Below, one piece after another: positions 1 to 6,502 of a stretch of 6,502 nucleotides of DNA. Both the position numbers and the translations under genes were made by a program. Each line of letters opens with the position of its first letter. Within the stretch, counting starts at the first letter, position 1. Under the pieces are notes generated by a model. The model saw nothing but the letters and a program-made list of their open reading frames with translations. It was not told where the DNA came from and made no database searches. The stretch comes from a virus (Duplodnaviria; Heunggongvirae; Uroviricota; Caudoviricetes). The DNA is taken from the IMG/VR virus record IMGVR_UViG_2711768006_000011. The stretch is one strand, 5' to 3'.

Positions 1-84
1 TACAATCGTCAGCGTCGTCACTCTCGTCTGGGGAATATCTCCCCGGCAGCCTTCAGGGAAAAATATCATCAGATGGCTGCTTAA
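1..84 (+). CDS. IS3-family transposase (OrfB-like), C-terminal fragment; 5' part lies outside the window
   Basis: Open frame from the window edge to TAA at 82-84; conserved integrase-core C-terminal motif as above. Confidence 0.6.
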   Translation, partial: YNRQRRHSRLGNISPAAFREKYHQMAA

Positions 85-127
85 AAAAAGAACAAATGGT
101 AGTGTCCGCTATTGCCAGTACACCTCA
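1..127 (+). mobile_element. IS3-family insertion sequence, right end (partial; element continues beyond the window)
   Basis: Positions 1-127 are the exact reverse complement of 6376-6502. Frame 1 encodes a transposase C-terminus ending YNRQRRHSRLGNISPAAFREKYHQMAA with stop at 82-84, matching the YN..R.HS.LG..SP..F tail typical of rve/DDE integrase-core transposases. The terminus ends in CA at 126-127, and read inward the terminal sequence TGAGGTGTACTGGCAATAGCGGACAC resembles IS3-group inverted repeats. Exact IS identity not assigned. Confidence 0.65.
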
Positions 128-525
128 GGATAGCGGTCATGTGATGCCGGTTTCCCGGTAACTCAGCACCGGTATCTGAGTCAACGTTTTCTCTACTGGG
201 TCATTTCCGATACGCCCTGCCTGCTGACAGGCTTTCATCACATCTGAAAATATAGCACCCTGACTGATACTGTAGTACCTAAGGTTCCAGAAACTGTGAT
301 GTATCCGGCACAGAAAAGCCCCTCCGGAGAGGGCTGGAGAGTGGCGCTATGTGCCATTGCATGATGCCGGGTGCCTCCCGGTGAATTCAGTACCAGCACC
401 TGAATCCGCGATTATCCCATATACCTACTCGCTGATTGCCCCTCCGCACAGGGGGATTCACCATGCCAGTTTCTTTTAACAAACTCCCCGCAAAACAGAC
501 AACTGTCAACCGTCTGAATTGTGAG

Positions 526-651
526 NNNNNNNNNNNNNNNNNNNNNNNNNNNNNNNNNNNNNNNNNNNNNNNNNNNNNNNNNNNNNNNNNNNNNNNNNNN
601 NNNNNNNNNNNNNNNNNNNNNNNNNNNNNNNNNNNNNNNNNNNNNNNNNNN
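526..651. other. Run of 126 N (assembly gap or masked sequence)
   Basis: Uninterrupted n characters at 526-651; truncates the tRNA at 652-704 and any ORF entering from either side. Confidence 1.
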
Positions 652-704
652 CCAGCGACCTGGCGATTATGAGTCGCTCGCTCTCACCACTGAGCTAAAG
701 GGCC
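652..704 (-). tRNA. tRNA with CAU anticodon, ileX-like (tRNA-Ile2 or Met); 3' part (T arm and acceptor 3' strand) lost in the N run
   Basis: Minus strand reads GGCCCTT-TA-GCTC-AGTGGTGA-GAGC-G-AGCGA-CTCATAA-TCGCC-AGGTC-GCTGG: acceptor 5' strand, D arm, anticodon arm with CAT at 34-36, variable loop and T-stem 5' strand. Closely resembles E. coli ileX as I recall it. The 5' end is 40 nt downstream of the methyltransferase stop. Confidence 0.8.
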
Positions 705-744
705 GGGAGCCGCATAATAACGACGCGTAATTAATTCTTCAATA

Positions 745-1803
745 TCATCCGTTCTGGCTGACTAAATCCTGTACTTCCCGAACCGTCTGCTCAAAACGTT
801 CAGTCTCCAGCTCAACGCCAATTGCACGACGCCCGAGCGCCAGTGCCGCTTTCACTGTCGAACCCAACCCCATGAAAAAATCTGCAATCAGGTCACCCGG
901 ACGACTGCTAGCGCTGATTATCTGCTGCAGCATTTCTGCCGGTTTTTCGCACGGATGTTTCCCGGGATAGAACTGCACCGGTTTATGCGTCCACACATCG
1001 GTATACGGCACCTGCACCGTCACGCCAAAATACCGCCGCAGATGTTTATATTCACTCAGCAGCTCCGCATACTGCCGGTTCAGTGAGGTATACGTATCCA
1101 CCAGCTGGTGGTGGAGCTTTTCCAGTTCACCACGCCGATGCTTCTCTTCTGCCACCCGGGCAAACAGCGCCTGTAATTTCAGATAATCGCTTTCATTCGG
1201 CAACTGCCACTGACCGGCACTGAACCAGTGCGACACCATGTTTTTCTTTCCTGTGGCATCTGCAATCTGTTTTGCCGTTATCCCCAGGGCAGCTCGCGCA
1301 TCACGAAAGTAAGAAATCAGCGGGGCCATCACATGCTGTTTCAGTGCACTGCCCTTCGCCGCATACCCGGCATCTTTCGGACGATACGGCCCCTGATAAT
1401 GTTCCGCGAACAGAATGCGCTCTGTGGCGGGGAAATACGCCCGCAGGCTTTCCTTGTTGCATCCGTTCCAGCGTCCGGACGGCTTCGCCCAGATAATATG
1501 GTTCAGCACACTGAAGCGTTCACGCATCATGATTTCGATATCAGATGCCAGGCGATGACCACAGAACAGGTAAAGACTTCCGGCAGGTTTCAGCACCCGC
1601 CAGAACTGCGCCAGACACTGGTCCAGCCACTTCAGGTAATCATCGTCGCCCTTCCACTGGTTATCCCAGCCCTCAGGCTTCACTTTAAAGTACGGCGGGT
1701 CCGTGACTATCAGGTCAACAGAATTTTCGGGTAACGACCGGATAAATTCCAGGCAGTCGGCGTTGATTAACTCACAACTGGATATTTTTACAGTATTAAG
1801 CAT
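745..1803 (-). CDS. Orphan DNA N6-adenine methyltransferase, beta-class (motif IV DPPY near the N-terminus, motif I FxGxG-like FFMGLGST near the C-terminus)
   Basis: 352-aa ORF. LIVTDPPY at residues 31-38, a central insert with a helix-turn-helix-like stretch (ITAKQIADATGKKNMVSHWF), and PGDLIADFFMGLGST near the C-terminus. No restriction endonuclease gene is adjacent. Weak Shine-Dalgarno, so the start is probable rather than certain. N4-cytosine specificity cannot be excluded from sequence alone. Confidence 0.85.
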   Translation of the reverse strand: MLNTVKISSCELINADCLEFIRSLPENSVDLIVTDPPYFKVKPEGWDNQWKGDDDYLKWLDQCLAQFWRVLKPAGSLYLFCGHRLASDIEIMMRERFSVLNHIIWAKPSGRWNGCNKESLRAYFPATERILFAEHYQGPYRPKDAGYAAKGSALKQHVMAPLISYFRDARAALGITAKQIADATGKKNMVSHWFSAGQWQLPNESDYLKLQALFARVAEEKHRRGELEKLHHQLVDTYTSLNRQYAELLSEYKHLRRYFGVTVQVPYTDVWTHKPVQFYPGKHPCEKPAEMLQQIISASSRPGDLIADFFMGLGSTVKAALALGRRAIGVELETERFEQTVREVQDLVSQNG

Positions 1804-1835
1804 GGATCATTAAGCCTGTCTCTGATAGGCTCATT

Positions 1836-1854
1836 CTGCTTTTGCGCAAAGCAG
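1836..1854. promoter_or_regulatory. 19-bp near-perfect palindrome CTGCTTT-TGCGC-AAAGCAG in the methyltransferase leader; candidate operator or RNA hairpin
   Basis: 7-bp arms at 1836-1842 and 1848-1854 are exact reverse complements; about 30 bp upstream of the methyltransferase start. Confidence 0.35.
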
Positions 1855-1895
1855 TGGGCCTGAGGTTTGCTTGTGAACCCAACGCATGAGCAGAT

Positions 1896-1926
1896 GGCTG
1901 GTGGGTGCCCCTAACACCCACCAGCC
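1896..1926. repeat. Perfect 12-bp inverted repeat with 7-nt loop (GGCTGGTGGGTG / CACCCACCAGCC); each arm contains a Chi octamer, giving a convergent Chi pair
   Basis: Arms at 1896-1907 and 1915-1926 are exact reverse complements. GCTGGTGG at 1897-1904 on the plus strand and at 1918-1925 on the minus strand. Confidence 0.8.
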
Positions 1927-1940
1927 GCCCATTTACCACA

Positions 1941-1967
1941 AATAAAAAAGCCTTCACTGCGGAAGGC
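1941..1967 (-). terminator. Rho-independent terminator overlapping the stop codon of the 65-aa ORF
   Basis: Minus-strand RNA GCCUUC-CGCAGU-GAAGGC followed by UUUUUUAUU; 6-bp GC-rich stem plus U tract. Confidence 0.75.
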
Positions 1968-2151
1968 GTCTGTAACAACCGAACTGATAGTCTGCCAGAC
2001 CCGCCATAACCAGCTGGGTCAGTATTAACTGGCAGCGTTCGCGTGAAAGGTAAGTATTCTGCGCTATCTCCCCGACTGTCGCCGGTTCGGTAACGCTTAA
2101 TTCATTAAACACCACTCTGGCGGTTTCTGTCATATCCTGCTGTTTTAGCAT
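1954..2151 (-). CDS. Small putative winged-helix DNA-binding protein (PapI/FaeA-like pattern), 65 aa
   Basis: ATG at 2151 preceded by AAGGA. The segment TVGEIAQNTYLSRERCQLILTQLVMAGLAD resembles the recognition helix and wing region of PapI/FaeA-type regulators. Lies between two terminators downstream of the pR'-like promoter. The family call is a by-eye inference. Confidence 0.55.
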   Translation of the reverse strand: MLKQQDMTETARVVFNELSVTEPATVGEIAQNTYLSRERCQLILTQLVMAGLADYQFGCYRRLPQ

Positions 2152-2270
2152 GTCTTTTCCTTTTCCGGTTAACGTGACACACCAATAACTCTTGTCGAAA
2201 AAGCCAGCAAGCTGAAAGACAGGTATTCACCGCCACCAGCGCGTTTACTGTACTGACGCGATTTCAGTCA

Positions 2271-2295
2271 TAAAAAACCCGCTCGGCGGCGGGTT
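2271..2295 (-). terminator. tR'-like rho-independent terminator downstream of the late promoter
   Basis: Minus-strand RNA CCCGC-CGCCGA-GCGGG followed by UUUUUUAU, about 40-60 nt downstream of the predicted start site. Confidence 0.7.
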
Positions 2296-2342
2296 GTAGA
2301 AACTCTTCTAACGTCAGGCATAAAACGCCCATCGTTATAACG

Positions 2343-2370
2343 AATTTACCACAGATTCCGGAAAAATCAA
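2343..2370 (-). promoter_or_regulatory. pR'-like late promoter immediately after the Q-like gene (-35 TTGATT, 16-bp spacer, -10 TAAATT), followed by a second -10-like element TATAAC
   Basis: Minus strand TTGATT (2365-2370), 16 bp, TAAATT (2343-2348), starting 5 nt after the stop codon of the Q-like gene. The downstream TATAAC could be a sigma70 pause-inducing element of the kind Q proteins engage. Confidence 0.5.
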
Positions 2371-2375
2371 CCTTG

Positions 2376-3197
2376 TTACCTAGTTACCTTTTTTAACTGC
2401 CGCTCAGCCCATGCTTCTTCAATATCAAACCGGGTCACCAGCGCATCATAAAATTTCTTAACTGTTTTTTCCCATGACGCGCGTGTTATCTGGTTTGTCA
2501 CCTCGCATATAGCATTAAATGCCTCCGTTGATGGTAGTCTTTCATAGCCACGACCACCACAACGCTGGCAGTCTCTGATAACAGGCATACCACGTTTTAC
2601 CGACTCTTCACGATGAATGGCGACACCACGCCCACGGCAATCCTTACAGGCGGTGGAAACCTCACCCTTTCCGCCACACTCCGGACAGGCAACTTTTACC
2701 ACCTCCCTGACTTTTTTCCATTCTTCCCAGTAAGACGGATACACACCTTTCGTACACTTTGCCCATACCGGCGGCTTACCATCCGGATACTGGATCTTGT
2801 TTGTAAAAACCTCGCTTTCAATAAATTTTTTTCCGTGACAGCAGGGGCACTGTTTTTTGCTCGCCGCGCTACGGGCATAATCTTCAAACGCATACGAAGC
2901 CATAATACGCATCACTGCCGGTTTTATTTCTGCCGGGAGTTTTCTTAACGCCGCCACGCGATCACACCGACTGAGTGCATATTCTGTCAGCAATTCTGTT
3001 GCCCGCTCTCTGTCATTCATACTAATGCCCATTTTCCCAAGGAACGCAGAAACCCCCATCTCAGCCCGATTCTGTGTCATGCCCTGCGCGGCCATCACAT
3101 CAGTGATACTCAGCGCATCTTTCGACGTTGAGGCCGATGCATCAGTCAGGCCGGGGGATTTTGGGGAGTAGTATTTCGGTAAATCTTCCAGTTTCAT
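2376..3197 (-). CDS. Q-like late-gene antitermination protein with four CxxC zinc-knuckle motifs
   Basis: 273-aa ORF. Motifs CPCCHGKK, CPECGGKG, CKDCRGRG and CQRCGGRG. Start ATG overlaps the rusA stop (ATGA). Sits immediately upstream of the promoter and terminator cassette and downstream of rusA, the canonical lambdoid position for Q. Family assignment from memory of quuQ-type proteins. Confidence 0.7.
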   Translation of the reverse strand: MKLEDLPKYYSPKSPGLTDASASTSKDALSITDVMAAQGMTQNRAEMGVSAFLGKMGISMNDRERATELLTEYALSRCDRVAALRKLPAEIKPAVMRIMASYAFEDYARSAASKKQCPCCHGKKFIESEVFTNKIQYPDGKPPVWAKCTKGVYPSYWEEWKKVREVVKVACPECGGKGEVSTACKDCRGRGVAIHREESVKRGMPVIRDCQRCGGRGYERLPSTEAFNAICEVTNQITRASWEKTVKKFYDALVTRFDIEEAWAERQLKKVTR

Positions 3198-3574
3198 TTT
3201 TTGACCTGCCCTTCAAGCATTATGGGATAAATCTTCACCCCCAGACGTCCACCAGATACTGGCTGAGCACGAACGATATTGATTTCATCAAACTGCTCAT
3301 CGTCCATTAGCAACCCCGCATGCGTCAGCGCATCCAGCGGCGCTTTCAGAATATTGTCCAGGTCACGGCGGCGCTTATCCGGTGGTTCTGCAATAATTTT
3401 TATTGCCAACCTTCCGGACAGGCTTAATTTCAGCCGCTGCTGGCGAACAATAAGCGCCACTGCCCGGCGATAACGCTCCCCGGCTTTTGATACAAAATAT
3501 GTGCTGCCACGACGACGCCAGTAAGTGTTCACCGTCGGCGGGTAAGGTAAAACAAATTCTATGCGCTCGGTCAT
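3194..3574 (-). CDS. rusA: RusA-family Holliday junction resolvase (crossover junction endodeoxyribonuclease)
   Basis: 126 aa with the conserved RRRDLDN motif (KRRRDLDNILKAPLDAL) and RusA-like N-terminus (LPYPPTVNTYW). ATG directly follows the upstream stop (TAAATG). Confidence 0.9.
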   Translation of the reverse strand: MTERIEFVLPYPPTVNTYWRRRGSTYFVSKAGERYRRAVALIVRQQRLKLSLSGRLAIKIIAEPPDKRRRDLDNILKAPLDALTHAGLLMDDEQFDEINIVRAQPVSGGRLGVKIYPIMLEGQVKK

Positions 3575-4633
3575 TTATGCTTTCCACTTCAGAACACCCG
3601 AATTTCTCGCGTGCATTAAAAAACGAATCAGCAACAACAGCTGACTGCCGTGTTTCTCTTCAAAATCTTTTACTCCGGCATGTAGTTCGTTACGGCATTT
3701 ACGGCATAACGGAATAACAAACAAATCATCAGCCTTTGTTCCCATCCCTCCCAGTCCATGACCAATGATGTGATGCGGATCATCTGCCTGATTGCCACAC
3801 GTCATGCATTTCTGCGTTTTTACCCAGCGCGTGTATACAGGCATCTCTTCCCGTTGTGATTTCTGGCGCTGGAGATACTGAGCCGGTGACTCCGGATCAA
3901 CGGCAATGCTGACCACCGTCTTTTCCTGTGGTGGGTTCTGTTGCTGGTGGACGTGAGGCAGTAACGCAATATTTTTTGTGCGCTGCTTCAGTATGCTGGT
4001 GGCTGTCTGCTCTCCCGGTATGATGTCGCTTTCACTGTACACAGAGCGAATTTTTTCCGCACGCAACCCCAGCGAACGACGTAATACCGCTTCCGGTAGC
4101 GCGTCCGCCACCTGATTGCGGACCGCCCACCAGGATAATTCAGCCAGAGATAATTCACGCTCCTGCGTACCGCTTATTGCGTGACCGATGACGTCAATCA
4201 TCCATGCTGACAGGTTTTGATGAGCAAGTTGCTCGAGTGATTCGGATGTCTGGTCACGCAGCTGGTTGTCGCAGTGCCAGCACAACACCATTGCGCCGGT
4301 ACCATAACGGTGAATGACGGTTTCGCTGTGATGATAATCGCCGTGTGGCCACTGGCAGGATTTAATATGGCGCAACAGCCAGTCAGACAATGCACCAGCA
4401 CCACCAGCAGCACGAATCACCCGTGCGTTACTGAAAAACGGCAGCAATGTTTTGTCTTCCACCAGCGGCTGGCGAGCGGCAGGAACGACCCCGGACGGCA
4501 GATTACGCATGCTTTTTGGTTCCGGCTCCACCAGTATTCTGCCGTTATGGAATGCTGACATTGATTCACGGCCTGGCTTAACGATAACCAGACCGAGTTC
4601 CGGTACCAGAACAGGTCGAAGTAATACCCGCAC
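3575..4633 (-). CDS. DUF968 / YdfU-like prophage protein with C-terminal HNH-type nuclease motif
   Basis: 352-aa frame. C-terminal CMTCG...DPHHIIGHG...PLCRKCRNELH resembles an HNH zinc-finger nuclease signature. Start is probably GTG at 4633 (GGAGG 4 nt upstream); an alternative ATG at 4561 would give 328 aa. Confidence 0.65.
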   Translation of the reverse strand: MRVLLRPVLVPELGLVIVKPGRESMSAFHNGRILVEPEPKSMRNLPSGVVPAARQPLVEDKTLLPFFSNARVIRAAGGAGALSDWLLRHIKSCQWPHGDYHHSETVIHRYGTGAMVLCWHCDNQLRDQTSESLEQLAHQNLSAWMIDVIGHAISGTQERELSLAELSWWAVRNQVADALPEAVLRRSLGLRAEKIRSVYSESDIIPGEQTATSILKQRTKNIALLPHVHQQQNPPQEKTVVSIAVDPESPAQYLQRQKSQREEMPVYTRWVKTQKCMTCGNQADDPHHIIGHGLGGMGTKADDLFVIPLCRKCRNELHAGVKDFEEKHGSQLLLLIRFLMHARNSGVLKWKA

Positions 4634-4708
4634 ATTACCTCCAGATCCGTTGCTGGAATGTGCGGGACGGACGCGTTGGCCGTTCGGAGTAAGGGAGCCT
4701 GACGGAGA

Positions 4709-4990
4709 TTATCCAGTGACGGTAGTCGAGGCTAAGGGCTTTTTTAACCTCGCATCCGCGCCTGCGGTAACACTGAATGAGCCATTCGGCCTGTTCTTCA
4801 GTGCATGGGGGATGCTGGTACCAATCAGATTTAAATGCGTGAGAGCGCCGCCCGTGCCTGCTGGCAAAGACGGCTGAATTATCAGAATTGTGTAGTCTGG
4901 AAGGCAGTGGCTGACAATAGCGCCATTCTCAACGCGCACAGTATAGAGGCCATCTTCACTAAAAATTTCACGTAATTCTTCGATTTTCAT
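4709..4990 (-). CDS. Hypothetical small prophage protein (93 aa from the ATG)
   Basis: ATG at 4990 preceded by GGAAGGA; the ORF tool starts one codon earlier at TTG 4993. N-terminal half (MKIEELREIFSEDGLYTVRVENGAIVSHC) looks protein-like; the C-terminal half is low complexity, so the 3' boundary is uncertain. Confidence 0.5.
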   Translation of the reverse strand: MKIEELREIFSEDGLYTVRVENGAIVSHCLPDYTILIIQPSLPAGTGGALTHLNLIGTSIPHALKNRPNGSFSVTAGADARLKKPLASTTVTG

Positions 4991-5072
4991 CAACAGAATC
5001 CTTCCAGATAAATAGCACTCCCCTGTTCGGGGTCCATCCCTCTTCTCCCTGCGCGCTACTTAAGTATTTTTG

Positions 5073-5102
5073 ATTCTATTCCGGCACCATCTAAAACTTC
5101 AA
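5073..5102 (-). promoter_or_regulatory. Candidate sigma70 promoter for the 93-aa / DUF968 / rusA / Q gene string
   Basis: Minus strand TTGAAG (5097-5102), 18-bp spacer, TAGAAT (5073-5078), located between the hok terminator and the 93-aa ORF. By-eye match only. Confidence 0.3.
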
Positions 5103-5110
5103 ACGCGTTG

Positions 5111-5142
5111 AAAATAAAAACAAAAACCCGCCGAAGCGGGTT
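5111..5142 (-). terminator. Rho-independent terminator with UUCG tetraloop, 3' of hok
   Basis: Minus-strand RNA AACCCGC-UUCG-GCGGGUU followed by UUUGUUUUUAUUUUC. Confidence 0.85.
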
Positions 5143-5210
5143 AAGTGTGGGTGCATTGAGGATGCCTGCCCCATCAGAGGTGGCGAGGGATTTCTCCCCC
5201 GCCTGGTCTC

Positions 5211-5366
5211 TTACTCCTCAGGTTCGTAAGCTGTGAAGACAGCGACCTCCGTCTGGCCGGTTCGAATTCGTACCTCGCAGAGGTCTTTCCTCGTTACCAG
5301 TGCCGTCACTATGACGGTTAAACAGATGACGATCAGGGCGATTAACATCGCCTTTTGCTGCTTCAT
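5211..5366 (-). CDS. hokD: Hok/Gef-family type I toxin (HokD/RelF-like), 51 aa
   Basis: MKQQKAMLIALIVICLTVIVTALVTRKDLCEVRIRTGQTEVAVFTAYEPEE has the hydrophobic helix plus conserved RKDLCEV..R.G..EVA.F.AYE core. ATG at 5366 is preceded by AAGGAG at 9 nt. The tool frame extends in frame to ATG 5423 (70 aa), which I treat as an upstream in-frame extension, not the toxin start. Confidence 0.9.
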   Translation of the reverse strand: MKQQKAMLIALIVICLTVIVTALVTRKDLCEVRIRTGQTEVAVFTAYEPEE

Positions 5367-5542
5367 AGCCTGCTTCTCCTTGCCTTTCGGCACGTAAGAG
5401 GCTAACCTAGATTTGCCGTTCATAGATTGAGCCTCAGATTAATGTTAAGCGTCTTGCCGGACGCGTAATGTTAACTGGGGCTTTTCTCTATCTGCCTTTT
5501 GGTGTTCATGCCTGAGACAGATAGCCTCAAGCACCCGCTGCA

Positions 5543-5570
5543 ATTCTACTTAACTCTCCTTTTCCCGCAA
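5543..5570 (-). promoter_or_regulatory. Candidate promoter for the hok mRNA (-35 TTGCGG, 16-bp spacer, -10 TAGAAT)
   Basis: Minus strand TTGCGG (5565-5570), 16 bp, TAGAAT (5543-5548); would give a leader of about 170 nt before the hok start. By-eye match only. Confidence 0.3.
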
Positions 5571-5657
5571 ACCGTTTTTATCCCCAGCGGCAAATCGAAT
5601 ACACCACCAGCGCCACCGCCATCGCAATTCCTACCGTTGTTAATGCTTCAGGCCAGG

Positions 5658-6002
5658 TCATCGTAAAATATCCTCCACGCTTATCAGTCCGTTCCGCTCC
5701 AGATAACTCATCGCCTTATCCGGTAATTTGCAGTCTGGCTTCGCTTTCCTCAGTTGCCAGGTTAACTGCTTTACCAGCATGGTTAACTCATCGACCAGAC
5801 GCTGATATCCCACTGGTTTGTATTCATGCAATTTACCGGCTGGCTCTGCTGCCAGCGATACCAGTGCGATTTCCAGAACAGCAATATCCATCTTATATGT
5901 GCGGATGATGTCATGGTCGATTGTGCCCGGTATGCACAGTCTCTGTGCTTCAATAGTCTCCTCTGCGTGAGCTATTAACTGCTCTCTGGTAAAAGTCGTC
6001 AT
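5658..6002 (-). CDS. Hypothetical prophage protein, 114 aa; paralogous in its N-terminal half to the upstream 55-aa gene
   Basis: ATG at 6002 overlaps the upstream stop (ATGA). Begins MTTFTRE and contains [16 protein letters not shown], paralleling MTTITKE and [16 protein letters not shown] in the neighbour. Confidence 0.6.
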
Positions 6003-6166
6003 GCCGTAGCCCCTTCTTGATATTTTTCAAACCAGAACACAACCGGCTCTGCTTCCAGCGATGCCAGCGCAATCCGTGCCAGTTCCATTTGTTCACCACG
6101 GGTAAGCCCGTTTTCAAGCGGGTTTTTAATGAACAATTCAATACGTTCTTTGGTAATAGTGGTCAT
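5999..6166 (-). CDS. Hypothetical small prophage protein, 55 aa (below the ORF-track cutoff; found by manual translation)
   Basis: Minus strand TTAAGGAGTAACAC-ATG gives a strong Shine-Dalgarno; translation [55 protein letters not shown]; stop overlaps the start of the 114-aa gene. Confidence 0.6.
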
Positions 6167-6176
6167 GTGTTACTCC

Positions 6177-6375
6177 TTAACCCGCAGTGCTTTCAACTGA
6201 TGAGGGGAACAAAATCTTTTCATCAAACCCTGCATTCATATCATGAACAGCAACACACCAATCCATCGACGAACGATTATCAAGAGCCTCCATGATTTCA
6301 TCCATGCGGCGTAGGTCATACAGGTAAATGCTTTTATCGCCAATGGTGTAAAAGCCAATTTTTTTCGGTGATGGA
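6177..6375 (-). pseudogene. 3' remnant of a prophage gene truncated by the IS insertion (chimeric ORF with an IS-supplied start codon)
   Basis: The tool ORF 6177-6407 starts inside the IS end; the first 10 codons (MVVSAIASTP) are IS-derived. The frame stays open across the 6375/6376 junction and stops at 6177, just before the Shine-Dalgarno of the 55-aa gene. Confidence 0.45.
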
Positions 6376-6502
6376 TGAGGTGTACTGGCAATAGCGGACA
6401 CTACCATTTGTTCTTTTTTTAAGCAGCCATCTGATGATATTTTTCCCTGAAGGCTGCCGGGGAGATATTCCCCAGACGAGAGTGACGACGCTGACGATTG
6501 TA
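6376..6502 (-). mobile_element. IS3-family insertion sequence, right end (partial), inverted relative to the copy at 1-127
   Basis: Exact reverse complement of 1-127; transposase C-terminal fragment at 6419-6502 on the minus strand. Confidence 0.65.

Follow-up and report, generated by a model that had tools for sequence, protein, structure and literature searches.

The question raised by the 6,502-nucleotide (nt) stretch of virus record IMGVR_UViG_2711768006_000011 (Caudoviricetes; the whole stretch is referred to here as the window) is what its two matching ends represent. Positions 1-127 and 6376-6502 form an inverted pair of arms that are 127 nt long and 100% complementary, with 6248 nt between them, as determined by a repeat search of the 6502-base window. 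The same search revealed no further long repeat, and the interior is non-palindromic. A chance origin of the arms is excluded, given a perfect repeat of such length. A preliminary description of the sequence had called attention to these perfect inverted ends, interpreted them as the inward-facing right ends of two IS3-family insertion sequence (IS) copies in opposite orientation, and likened the arrangement to a composite transposon. We find that the two IS copies are real, that the 127-bp length of the arms is not biological, and that the pair is not a composite transposon. As judged from its sequence, the window is very probably a complete de Bruijn contig assembled from short reads (k = 127) of Shigella sonnei or of a strain nearly identical to it, made up of the unique DNA between two inverted IS600 copies in a decayed lambdoid prophage adjoining ompW.

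The arms are the right end of IS600. Thousands of Escherichia coli records annotated as 'IS3-like element IS600 family transposase' match the 127-mer at 100% (127/127), so the possibility that the terminal 127 bp would find no IS match was not realised. Window positions 1-84 in frame 1 encode YNRQRRHSRLGNISPAAFREKYHQMAA followed by a stop, a sequence that the IS600 transposase of S. sonnei Ss046 shares exactly at its C-terminus (the final 27 codons plus stop), and the arm at 1-127 terminates in ...CCTCA, with the CA at window base 127. The IS3-family ends described at the outset, each with a transposase 3' end and a CA terminus, are thereby assigned to a named element.

Finished chromosomes carrying the locus were located using its DUF968 protein (3575-4633, minus strand) as a probe for exact matches in public assemblies. 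This probe returned 3132 assembly blocks, in which contigs are mostly 2-10 kb; 88 blocks have contigs > 1 Mb. From 30 contigs read, 10 distinct finished-chromosome contexts were obtained. Loci and their coordinates are labelled as follows: L012, CP000038.1, which is the chromosome of S. sonnei Ss046 (PMC6562246); L009, CP064376.1; L006, JBEAAF010000002.1; L007, CP179977.1; L008, LR213449.1; L010, CP022672.1; L011, CP045932.1; and L015, NZ_AP022105.1. The window is 99.97% identical to CP000038.1, where its reverse complement occupies L012 8132-14750 (2 mismatches in 5851 bp and none in the other 525 bp). All 10 distinct finished contexts (Ss046 plus nine) have a complete IS3-type transposase gene on each side of the segment, with 3' ends facing inward. 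In Ss046 these genes belong to two full IS600 copies, here named IS-A and IS-B, and a third copy (IS-C) lies nearby (Table 1); finished chromosomes hold the three 1264-bp copies within 21 kb. The copies differ by 1-2 single-nucleotide polymorphisms (positions 715 and 980; 2 between IS-A and IS-B), none of which is in the last 127 bp. Two inverted IS600 copies with their right ends inward do surround the segment, as had been proposed from the window alone.

The full IS600 copies have termini of the form TGAGG...CCTCA (TG...CA). Their left and right inverted repeats (IRL, TGAGGTAGCC...; IRR, TGAGGTGTAC...) are imperfect, with 23 of 40 positions identical. Genes are called either as two frames of 100 and 272 amino acids (aa; orfA/orfB) or as a fused frame of 385 aa, with the domains PF01527, PF13276 and PF00665 (HTH, rve/DDE). 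An A7G slippery run is located at IS600 position 316, and a related record is annotated 'programmed frameshift'. IS600 is among five IS that are expanded in all Shigella, and reference chromosomes hold 229-348 IS; there is ample documentation that IS have fragmented and rearranged Shigella genomes (PMC7373316). The locus itself is already known: it has been public in S. sonnei genomes since CP000038.1, as one of hundreds of IS-disrupted Shigella sites.

The length of the arms is explained by assembly. Both are exactly 127 long, both lie at the extremes of the window and both are bounded by the IS600 terminus, and in finished genomes the IS600 identity behind them runs for 1264 bp, not 127. In a de Bruijn graph, a unique edge entering a collapsed repeat ends with that repeat's first k bases. 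All IS600 copies would here collapse to one node, and the unique edge would take the first k bases of this node at both of its ends, giving two perfect 127-bp arms. SPAdes has a largest k of 127 and leaves overlapping sequence at contig ends (PMC5481147). The exact repeat length is an assembler artefact and not biology; the preliminary description had entered this very caveat, and the SPAdes maximum and the geometry of the ends bear it out. When contig ends carry perfect repeats, whether inverted or direct, of 127 bp (or 55, 77 or 99), these mark where a repeat starts, not how long it is; in this case the 127-bp ends still report correctly that an IS lies on either side of the segment.

The length of the window (6502 = 6248 + 2 x 127) and its end geometry strongly indicate that it is one whole contig at k = 127. 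One point weighs against this view: a run of 126 Ns (window 526-651) does not preserve true length, replacing 243 bp of Ss046 (L012 13983-14225, uncovered in BLAST) and hinting at scaffolding or masking. The borders of the N run are off gene borders, and it resembles a scaffold gap or an external mask more than feature masking. The true distance between the two IS copies in Ss046 is 6365 bp, versus 6248 in the window; the 6.2-kb module first described is IS-bounded as stated, but its size is an underestimate owing to the N run.

The two IS600 copies arose independently. IS-B was acquired by simple insertion and has a 3-bp target-site duplication of its own; the phage tRNA cluster lies on one side of it and, downstream, the esterase and lysis genes on the other. 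TCC flanks IS-B on both sides, and CP064376.1 (L009) retains the empty site, ...gctatccttccagg, with a single TCC. The native gene order continues across this copy (methyltransferase, tRNAs, [IS-B], SASA-family esterase, holin) and is the same in IS-free relatives. An exact match for the IS-B junction was found in none of the genomes of a species-representative collection. The position of IS-B, downstream of the Q-methyltransferase-tRNA block, is that of the stx2 genes in related Stx phages such as LC567834.1; stx sequence is absent here. On the plus strand of the window GGA stands beside both arms, and this was considered as a sign of a single event and rejected: relative to the IS, the triplet reads GGA for one copy but TCC for the other, and the partner of the IS-B triplet is on its own far side.

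IS-A has no direct target duplication, and the DUF977 gene on its left has the wrong orientation for a lambdoid prophage. The phage gene cut at its junction, a 264-nt gene of the nin region, contains a single TCC at this point when intact (...gctgTCCatcacc). In L012 the site is split into ...gctgTCC/tgtggtg (5186-5191 region, inverted) and cctca/TCCatcacc (8259): the 72 bp expected before the IS-A point are found at L012 5189-5260, inverted and ending in ...gctgTCC, with the same TCC as that after IS-A. This displaced half-site abuts the integrase gene intE, which is cut at PPompW intE position 573 (intact, ...acaccaca/tcatcc; Ss046, ...acaccaca/GGAcagcg). If the inverted block and the segment are rejoined with a single TCC, the rebuilt junction is matched in one piece, at 99.7%, in 23 finished E. 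coli genomes. NZ_AP022105.1 (L015) is collinear, with the order ompW, int, xis, exo, early region, repressor, cro, replication gene, DUF977, 213-nt gene, DUF4014, 264-nt gene, hok, DUF968, rusA and Q. Its gene order shows the collinear ancestor of the Ss046 locus, from which 8.6 kb (L015 10922-19545) are missing. Two smaller features of this region were observed. A 128-aa fusion open reading frame (ORF) at L012 4870-5256 (minus strand), also called as a gene in L004, joins the first ~22 codons of the 264-nt gene to the last ~106 integrase codons and is a product of the rearrangement junction. Within the inverted block, an IS1 at L012 5763-6532 is a simple insertion, with the sequence of L015 20001-20007 present on both sides.

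On the integrase side, the sequence running outward from the junction begins with TGTGGTGT, which is identical at 7 of 8 positions to the tip of the IS600 right end (TGAGGTGT). In the intact prophage, sites matching the IS600 tip this well have a frequency of 4.0e-4 per position. Intramolecular deletions and inversions are a known consequence of active IR-IR junctions in copy-out-paste-in IS (PMC9333248). We consider it an even chance that a single IS600 reaction of this type produced the IS-A side of the locus, in which the right end together with the integrase look-alike end would have attacked the same prophage, removing the integration, immunity and replication region and locking the remnant in the chromosome. 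That IS600 used a surrogate end at all may be put at evens or a shade better. In the proposed sequence of events, the future IS-A most likely began, oppositely oriented, at the 5' end of DUF977. Across the early region, its right end would have faced the look-alike end (TGTGGTGT); the two would then have been joined, and the joined ends would have attacked the TCC in the 264-nt gene on the same chromosome, intramolecularly. The inversion outcome of such an attack would be ompW-int'/GGA-(264' to DUF977, inverted)-IS600-TCC-'264, the DNA that had separated the two ends being lost. The predicted effect is inversion of IS-A with 1.8 kb of phage DNA, deletion of ~8.6 kb (the 5' part of int, xis, exo, repressor, cro and replication genes) and a 3-bp duplication left in inverted form. 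The remnant (hok/sok, DUF968, rusA, Q, methyltransferase and tRNAs) would be fixed in place, cut off from the lysis genes. A one-step product simulated from Ss046 pieces is exactly the Ss046 sequence, which verifies the geometry of the model and not its history.

The alternative that survives best, although we regard it as doubtful, is that IS-A entered the 264-nt gene by ordinary insertion with a TCC duplication, that the block inversion and the loss of the early region came later and are unrelated to it, and that the match to the integrase tip is coincidental. A TCC duplication is the expected mark of a simple IS600 insertion, and Shigella genomes are heavily rearranged (PMC7373316). However, this history requires at least two more breaks, one precisely at the left terminus of the IS and one directly following the TCC, and an int junction that retains no IS; it must treat as coincidence a 7/8 tip match with a background of 4e-4 per position; and the one-step model already reproduces the sequence base for base. 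Two other routes were considered and rejected. If IS-A had first been inserted into the 264-nt gene and its left end had then been used, the predicted joints differ from those found, since the integrase-side DNA is in fact joined to the old target and not to an IS end. If IS-A and IS-C were reciprocal recombinants of two simple insertions, a 3-bp match would be expected, and the flank pairs ttt/gtt and tcc/aat give none.

Several points count against the one-step use of a surrogate end. None of 5426 finished E. coli genomes contains the IRL/DUF977 junction, and the intermediate postulated by the model, in which IS600 lies in DUF977 while int and the 264-nt gene are both undamaged, was not encountered in any genome. 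Beyond its first 8 bases, the look-alike end bears no resemblance to IS600. The searched literature yielded no case of surrogate-end use by IS600 itself and, likewise, no directly usable paper on surrogate-end or one-ended IS911 transposition. One-ended insertion of IS911 is reportedly the subject of a classic report, which is not used as evidence here. If true, the reconstruction would document, within a genome, the domestication of a prophage through use of a surrogate end by an IS3-family element. The reconstruction suggests that one reaction by IS600 can disable a prophage (int, xis, repressor and replication genes gone) yet keep its late regulators, tRNAs and toxin-antitoxin. We consider this base-level reconstruction to be the one point of some scientific value, as a modest side result. 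A practical consequence is that target duplications should be sought in inverted form and at a distance before an IS copy is called 'recombinant'.

These separate histories bear directly on the composite transposon, in which the inverted IS600 pair and the 6.4-kb prophage module between them moved, or can move, as a unit. The layout is that of the textbook Tn10/Tn5 composite, with two near-identical inverted IS copies bracketing a segment, and such an origin had been suggested in the preliminary description. We regard it as very improbable. The IS600 pair here is not a composite transposon, because IS-B has its own TCC duplication (with an empty site in the otherwise identical strain CP064376.1), because the segment continues on the IS-B side in native phage order (tRNAs, esterase, holin) as it does in IS-free relatives, and because the outer flanks are mismatched. 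Target-site duplications on the outer sides of the two copies were looked for: the flanks are ...aatttt/ (ttt) and /tccttcc (tcc), with no duplication shared by the pair, and only IS-B has a direct one (TCC/TCC), the TCC of the IS-A event occurring twice in inverted form 3 kb apart. The flank on the IS-A side is the same prophage, inverted, in keeping with a separate rearrangement, and IS-free relatives carry the same genes in place. The unit was not seen as a block in unrelated contexts; its right flank is always native phage, and the variants of its left flank are IS600 or IS1 inversions. Finally, the outer ends of such a unit would both be left ends, whereas the pairing of a left with a right end is the norm when IS3-family elements transpose (established for IS911/IS3; partly PMC9333248).

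A short-read contig alone cannot phase two junctions, and the window could in principle derive from a single IS600 copy, with its junctions drawn from a mixed population (e.g., a flipping segment) or an assembly chimera. This is highly unlikely: in at least 10 distinct finished contexts, including Ss046, the two junctions are on the same molecule, where 6365 bp separate two complete copies, and one right end cannot join two different flanks. A genuine 6.5-kb mobile element with the arms as its terminal inverted repeats, or a library-preparation artefact of the fold-back or palindrome kind, would suit a perfect repeat at the extreme ends but has a negligible probability, the arms being the coding 3' end and terminus of an element whose identity extends over 1264 bp in finished genomes, with a non-palindromic interior between them.

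Although they do not form a transposon, the IS600 copies do support inversion by homologous recombination. Finished S. sonnei genomes vary in the left flank of IS-A. In JBEAAF010000002.1 (L006) it is the reverse complement of the Ss046 DNA to the right of IS-C, and vice versa: relative to Ss046, this chromosome has undergone an inversion between the inverted copies IS-A and IS-C in which the window segment was carried along. LR213449.1 (L008) and CP045932.1 (L011) have an unrelated left flank, and CP179977.1 (L007) diverges at the nearby IS1, which is also a rearrangement point. An IS-A x IS-B inversion of the segment alone was seen in none of the 10 distinct finished contexts from the 30 contigs read. 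Homologous recombination between inverted copies gives inversion and not deletion. Of the IS-mediated inversion or deletion originally envisaged for the inverted pair, inversion has occurred, between IS-A and IS-C, but deletion is not available to such a pair; it would need the direct repeats IS-B and IS-C, which could remove the esterase-holin block between them. IS-C lies 3.5 kb past IS-B and is directly repeated with respect to that copy; no target duplication borders it (aac/att).

The segment between IS-A and IS-B is the late-regulatory remnant of an ompW-integrated lambdoid prophage (Table 1). On one side it lacks the 5' part of int, xis, the repressor, cro and replication functions, and on the other it is parted from the esterase and lysis genes by IS-B. 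The remnant is presumably neither inducible nor excisable, because the genes concerned are lost or cut off. The Q-like antiterminator, methyltransferase, hok and rusA genes recognised in the preliminary description were confirmed by PF03589, PF01555, PF01848 and PF05866, respectively, on homologous ORFs. Further content consists of three small nin-region ORFs and one Rem-family ORF; an apparent 76-aa ORF at 6177-6407 begins within IS600. ARAGORN identified no tRNA in the window because the N run covers most of the cluster; in Ss046 it identified three tRNAs at L012 13930-14179, and relatives have tRNA-Ile/Arg/Arg at the corresponding position. The STnc100-family small RNA (sRNA) is located between the phage tRNA cluster and IS-B. 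The hok/mok ORF is complete and is accompanied by sok, and the remnant thus has an apparently intact type I toxin-antitoxin. Variation within the segment was also observed. CP064376.1 has 250 bp extra in the rem region (L009 9482-9731, window ~4902), corresponding to a 250-bp deletion in the window and most S. sonnei; this strain is also without IS-B. CP022672.1 has an extra 1.25-kb IS3-family element (389-aa transposase) at L010 7095-8343, corresponding to window ~6288-6290 with a 3-bp overlap, and ~1.35 kb of additional DNA at L010 13983-15574, within the stretch hidden by the N run.

Table 1. Features of the window and the full IS600 copies of S. sonnei Ss046 (positions refer to the window unless marked L012).
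Feature	Position	Strand	Details
IS600 last 127 bp, copy IS-B	1-127	+	27 codons plus stop (1-84), then right terminal inverted repeat; L012 14624-14750, within full copy 14624-15887
GGA, inner copy of the IS-B 3-bp target-site duplication (TCC on other strand)	128-130		L012 ...gctaTCC/<IS-B/TCCttcc
STnc100-family sRNA, prophage late region	306-495	-	Rfam RF02076, 123.6 bits (gathering score 47)
N run	526-651		Hides 3' 23 nt of tRNA-Met(CAT), tRNA-Arg(TCG), tRNA-Arg(TCT) and 46 nt downstream
tRNA-Met(CAT), visible 5' 53 nt	652-704	-	L012 13930-13982; annotated as tRNA-Ile in relatives
DNA methyltransferase, 352 aa	745-1803	-	PF01555 N6_N4_Mtase on identical gene in L003-L012
Q-type late antiterminator, 273 aa	2376-3197	-	PF03589 Antiterm; 'antitermination protein' in relatives
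rusA Holliday-junction resolvase, 126 aa	3194-3574	-	PF05866 RusA
DUF968 (YdfU-like), 352 aa	3575-4633	-	PF06147
hok/mok toxin ORF (5211-5423) and sok antisense RNA region (5361-5536)	5211-5536	-	PF01848 HOK_GEF; Rfam RF01794 sok, 112.4 bits
264-nt phage gene, 3' part	6177-6375	-	5' end removed by IS-A junction; intact gene in L001 and L015
GGA (TCC on other strand), one copy of the IS-A event target	6373-6375		Other copy 3.07 kb away in Ss046, inverted, joined to truncated integrase gene
IS600 last 127 bp, copy IS-A	6376-6502	-	L012 8132-8258, within full copy 6995-8258
IS-A	L012 6995-8258	+	Full 1264-bp IS600
IS-B	L012 14624-15887	-	Full 1264-bp IS600
IS-C	L012 19351-20614	-	Full 1264-bp IS600, third copy

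The element at both ends agrees with IS600 of the IS3 family in every respect compared: sequence identity, TG...CA termini, orfA/orfB with a frameshift run, a DDE domain and a 3-bp target duplication. No difference in the element itself was found; the window displays only its last 127 bp, as a consequence of assembly. The arms are similar to the contig-end overlaps of de Bruijn assemblers such as SPAdes in having a length of k, in lying at the extreme ends and in being bounded by the edge of a multi-copy repeat. Such overlaps generally come to notice as direct repeats when contigs are circular, whereas here the ends are reverse-complementary and both join the same end of the collapsed IS. With composites of the Tn10/Tn5 type the locus has in common two inverted copies of one IS around a passenger; it differs in that no duplication is common to the arms, one of which carries its own and has an empty-site allele, in that the passenger is native, and in that the outer ends are two IS3-family left ends.

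The rearrangement proposed for IS-A has the same outcome as those at the IR-IR junctions of IS30 and IS911, namely an inversion, loss of the DNA between the joined ends and a small target duplication (PMC9333248). In this case, a true IS end would have been paired with a look-alike that is not part of an IS, and for IS600 such a reaction is suggested by the sequence of the locus. A defective lambdoid prophage with IS600 beside its late region is also found in the Stx prophage remnant of Shigella dysenteriae type 1, where the IS is upstream of stx (PMC7819885); the locus described here has no stx genes and involves another prophage, species and IS arrangement. Also close to the segment are the ompW-integrated lambdoid prophages (PPompW of enterohaemorrhagic E. 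coli and the intact prophage of E. coli WP5-S17-ESBL-10), which occupy the same ompW-adjacent site, have an integrase that is 95.8% identical over the retained part and share the order DUF977, DUF4014, 264-nt gene, hok, DUF968, rusA and Q with S. sonnei. Compared to these prophages, the S. sonnei copy is missing the 8.6-kb early region, has a 1.8-kb block inverted, has gained an IS1 and three IS600 copies, and is cut between its tRNAs and lysis genes.

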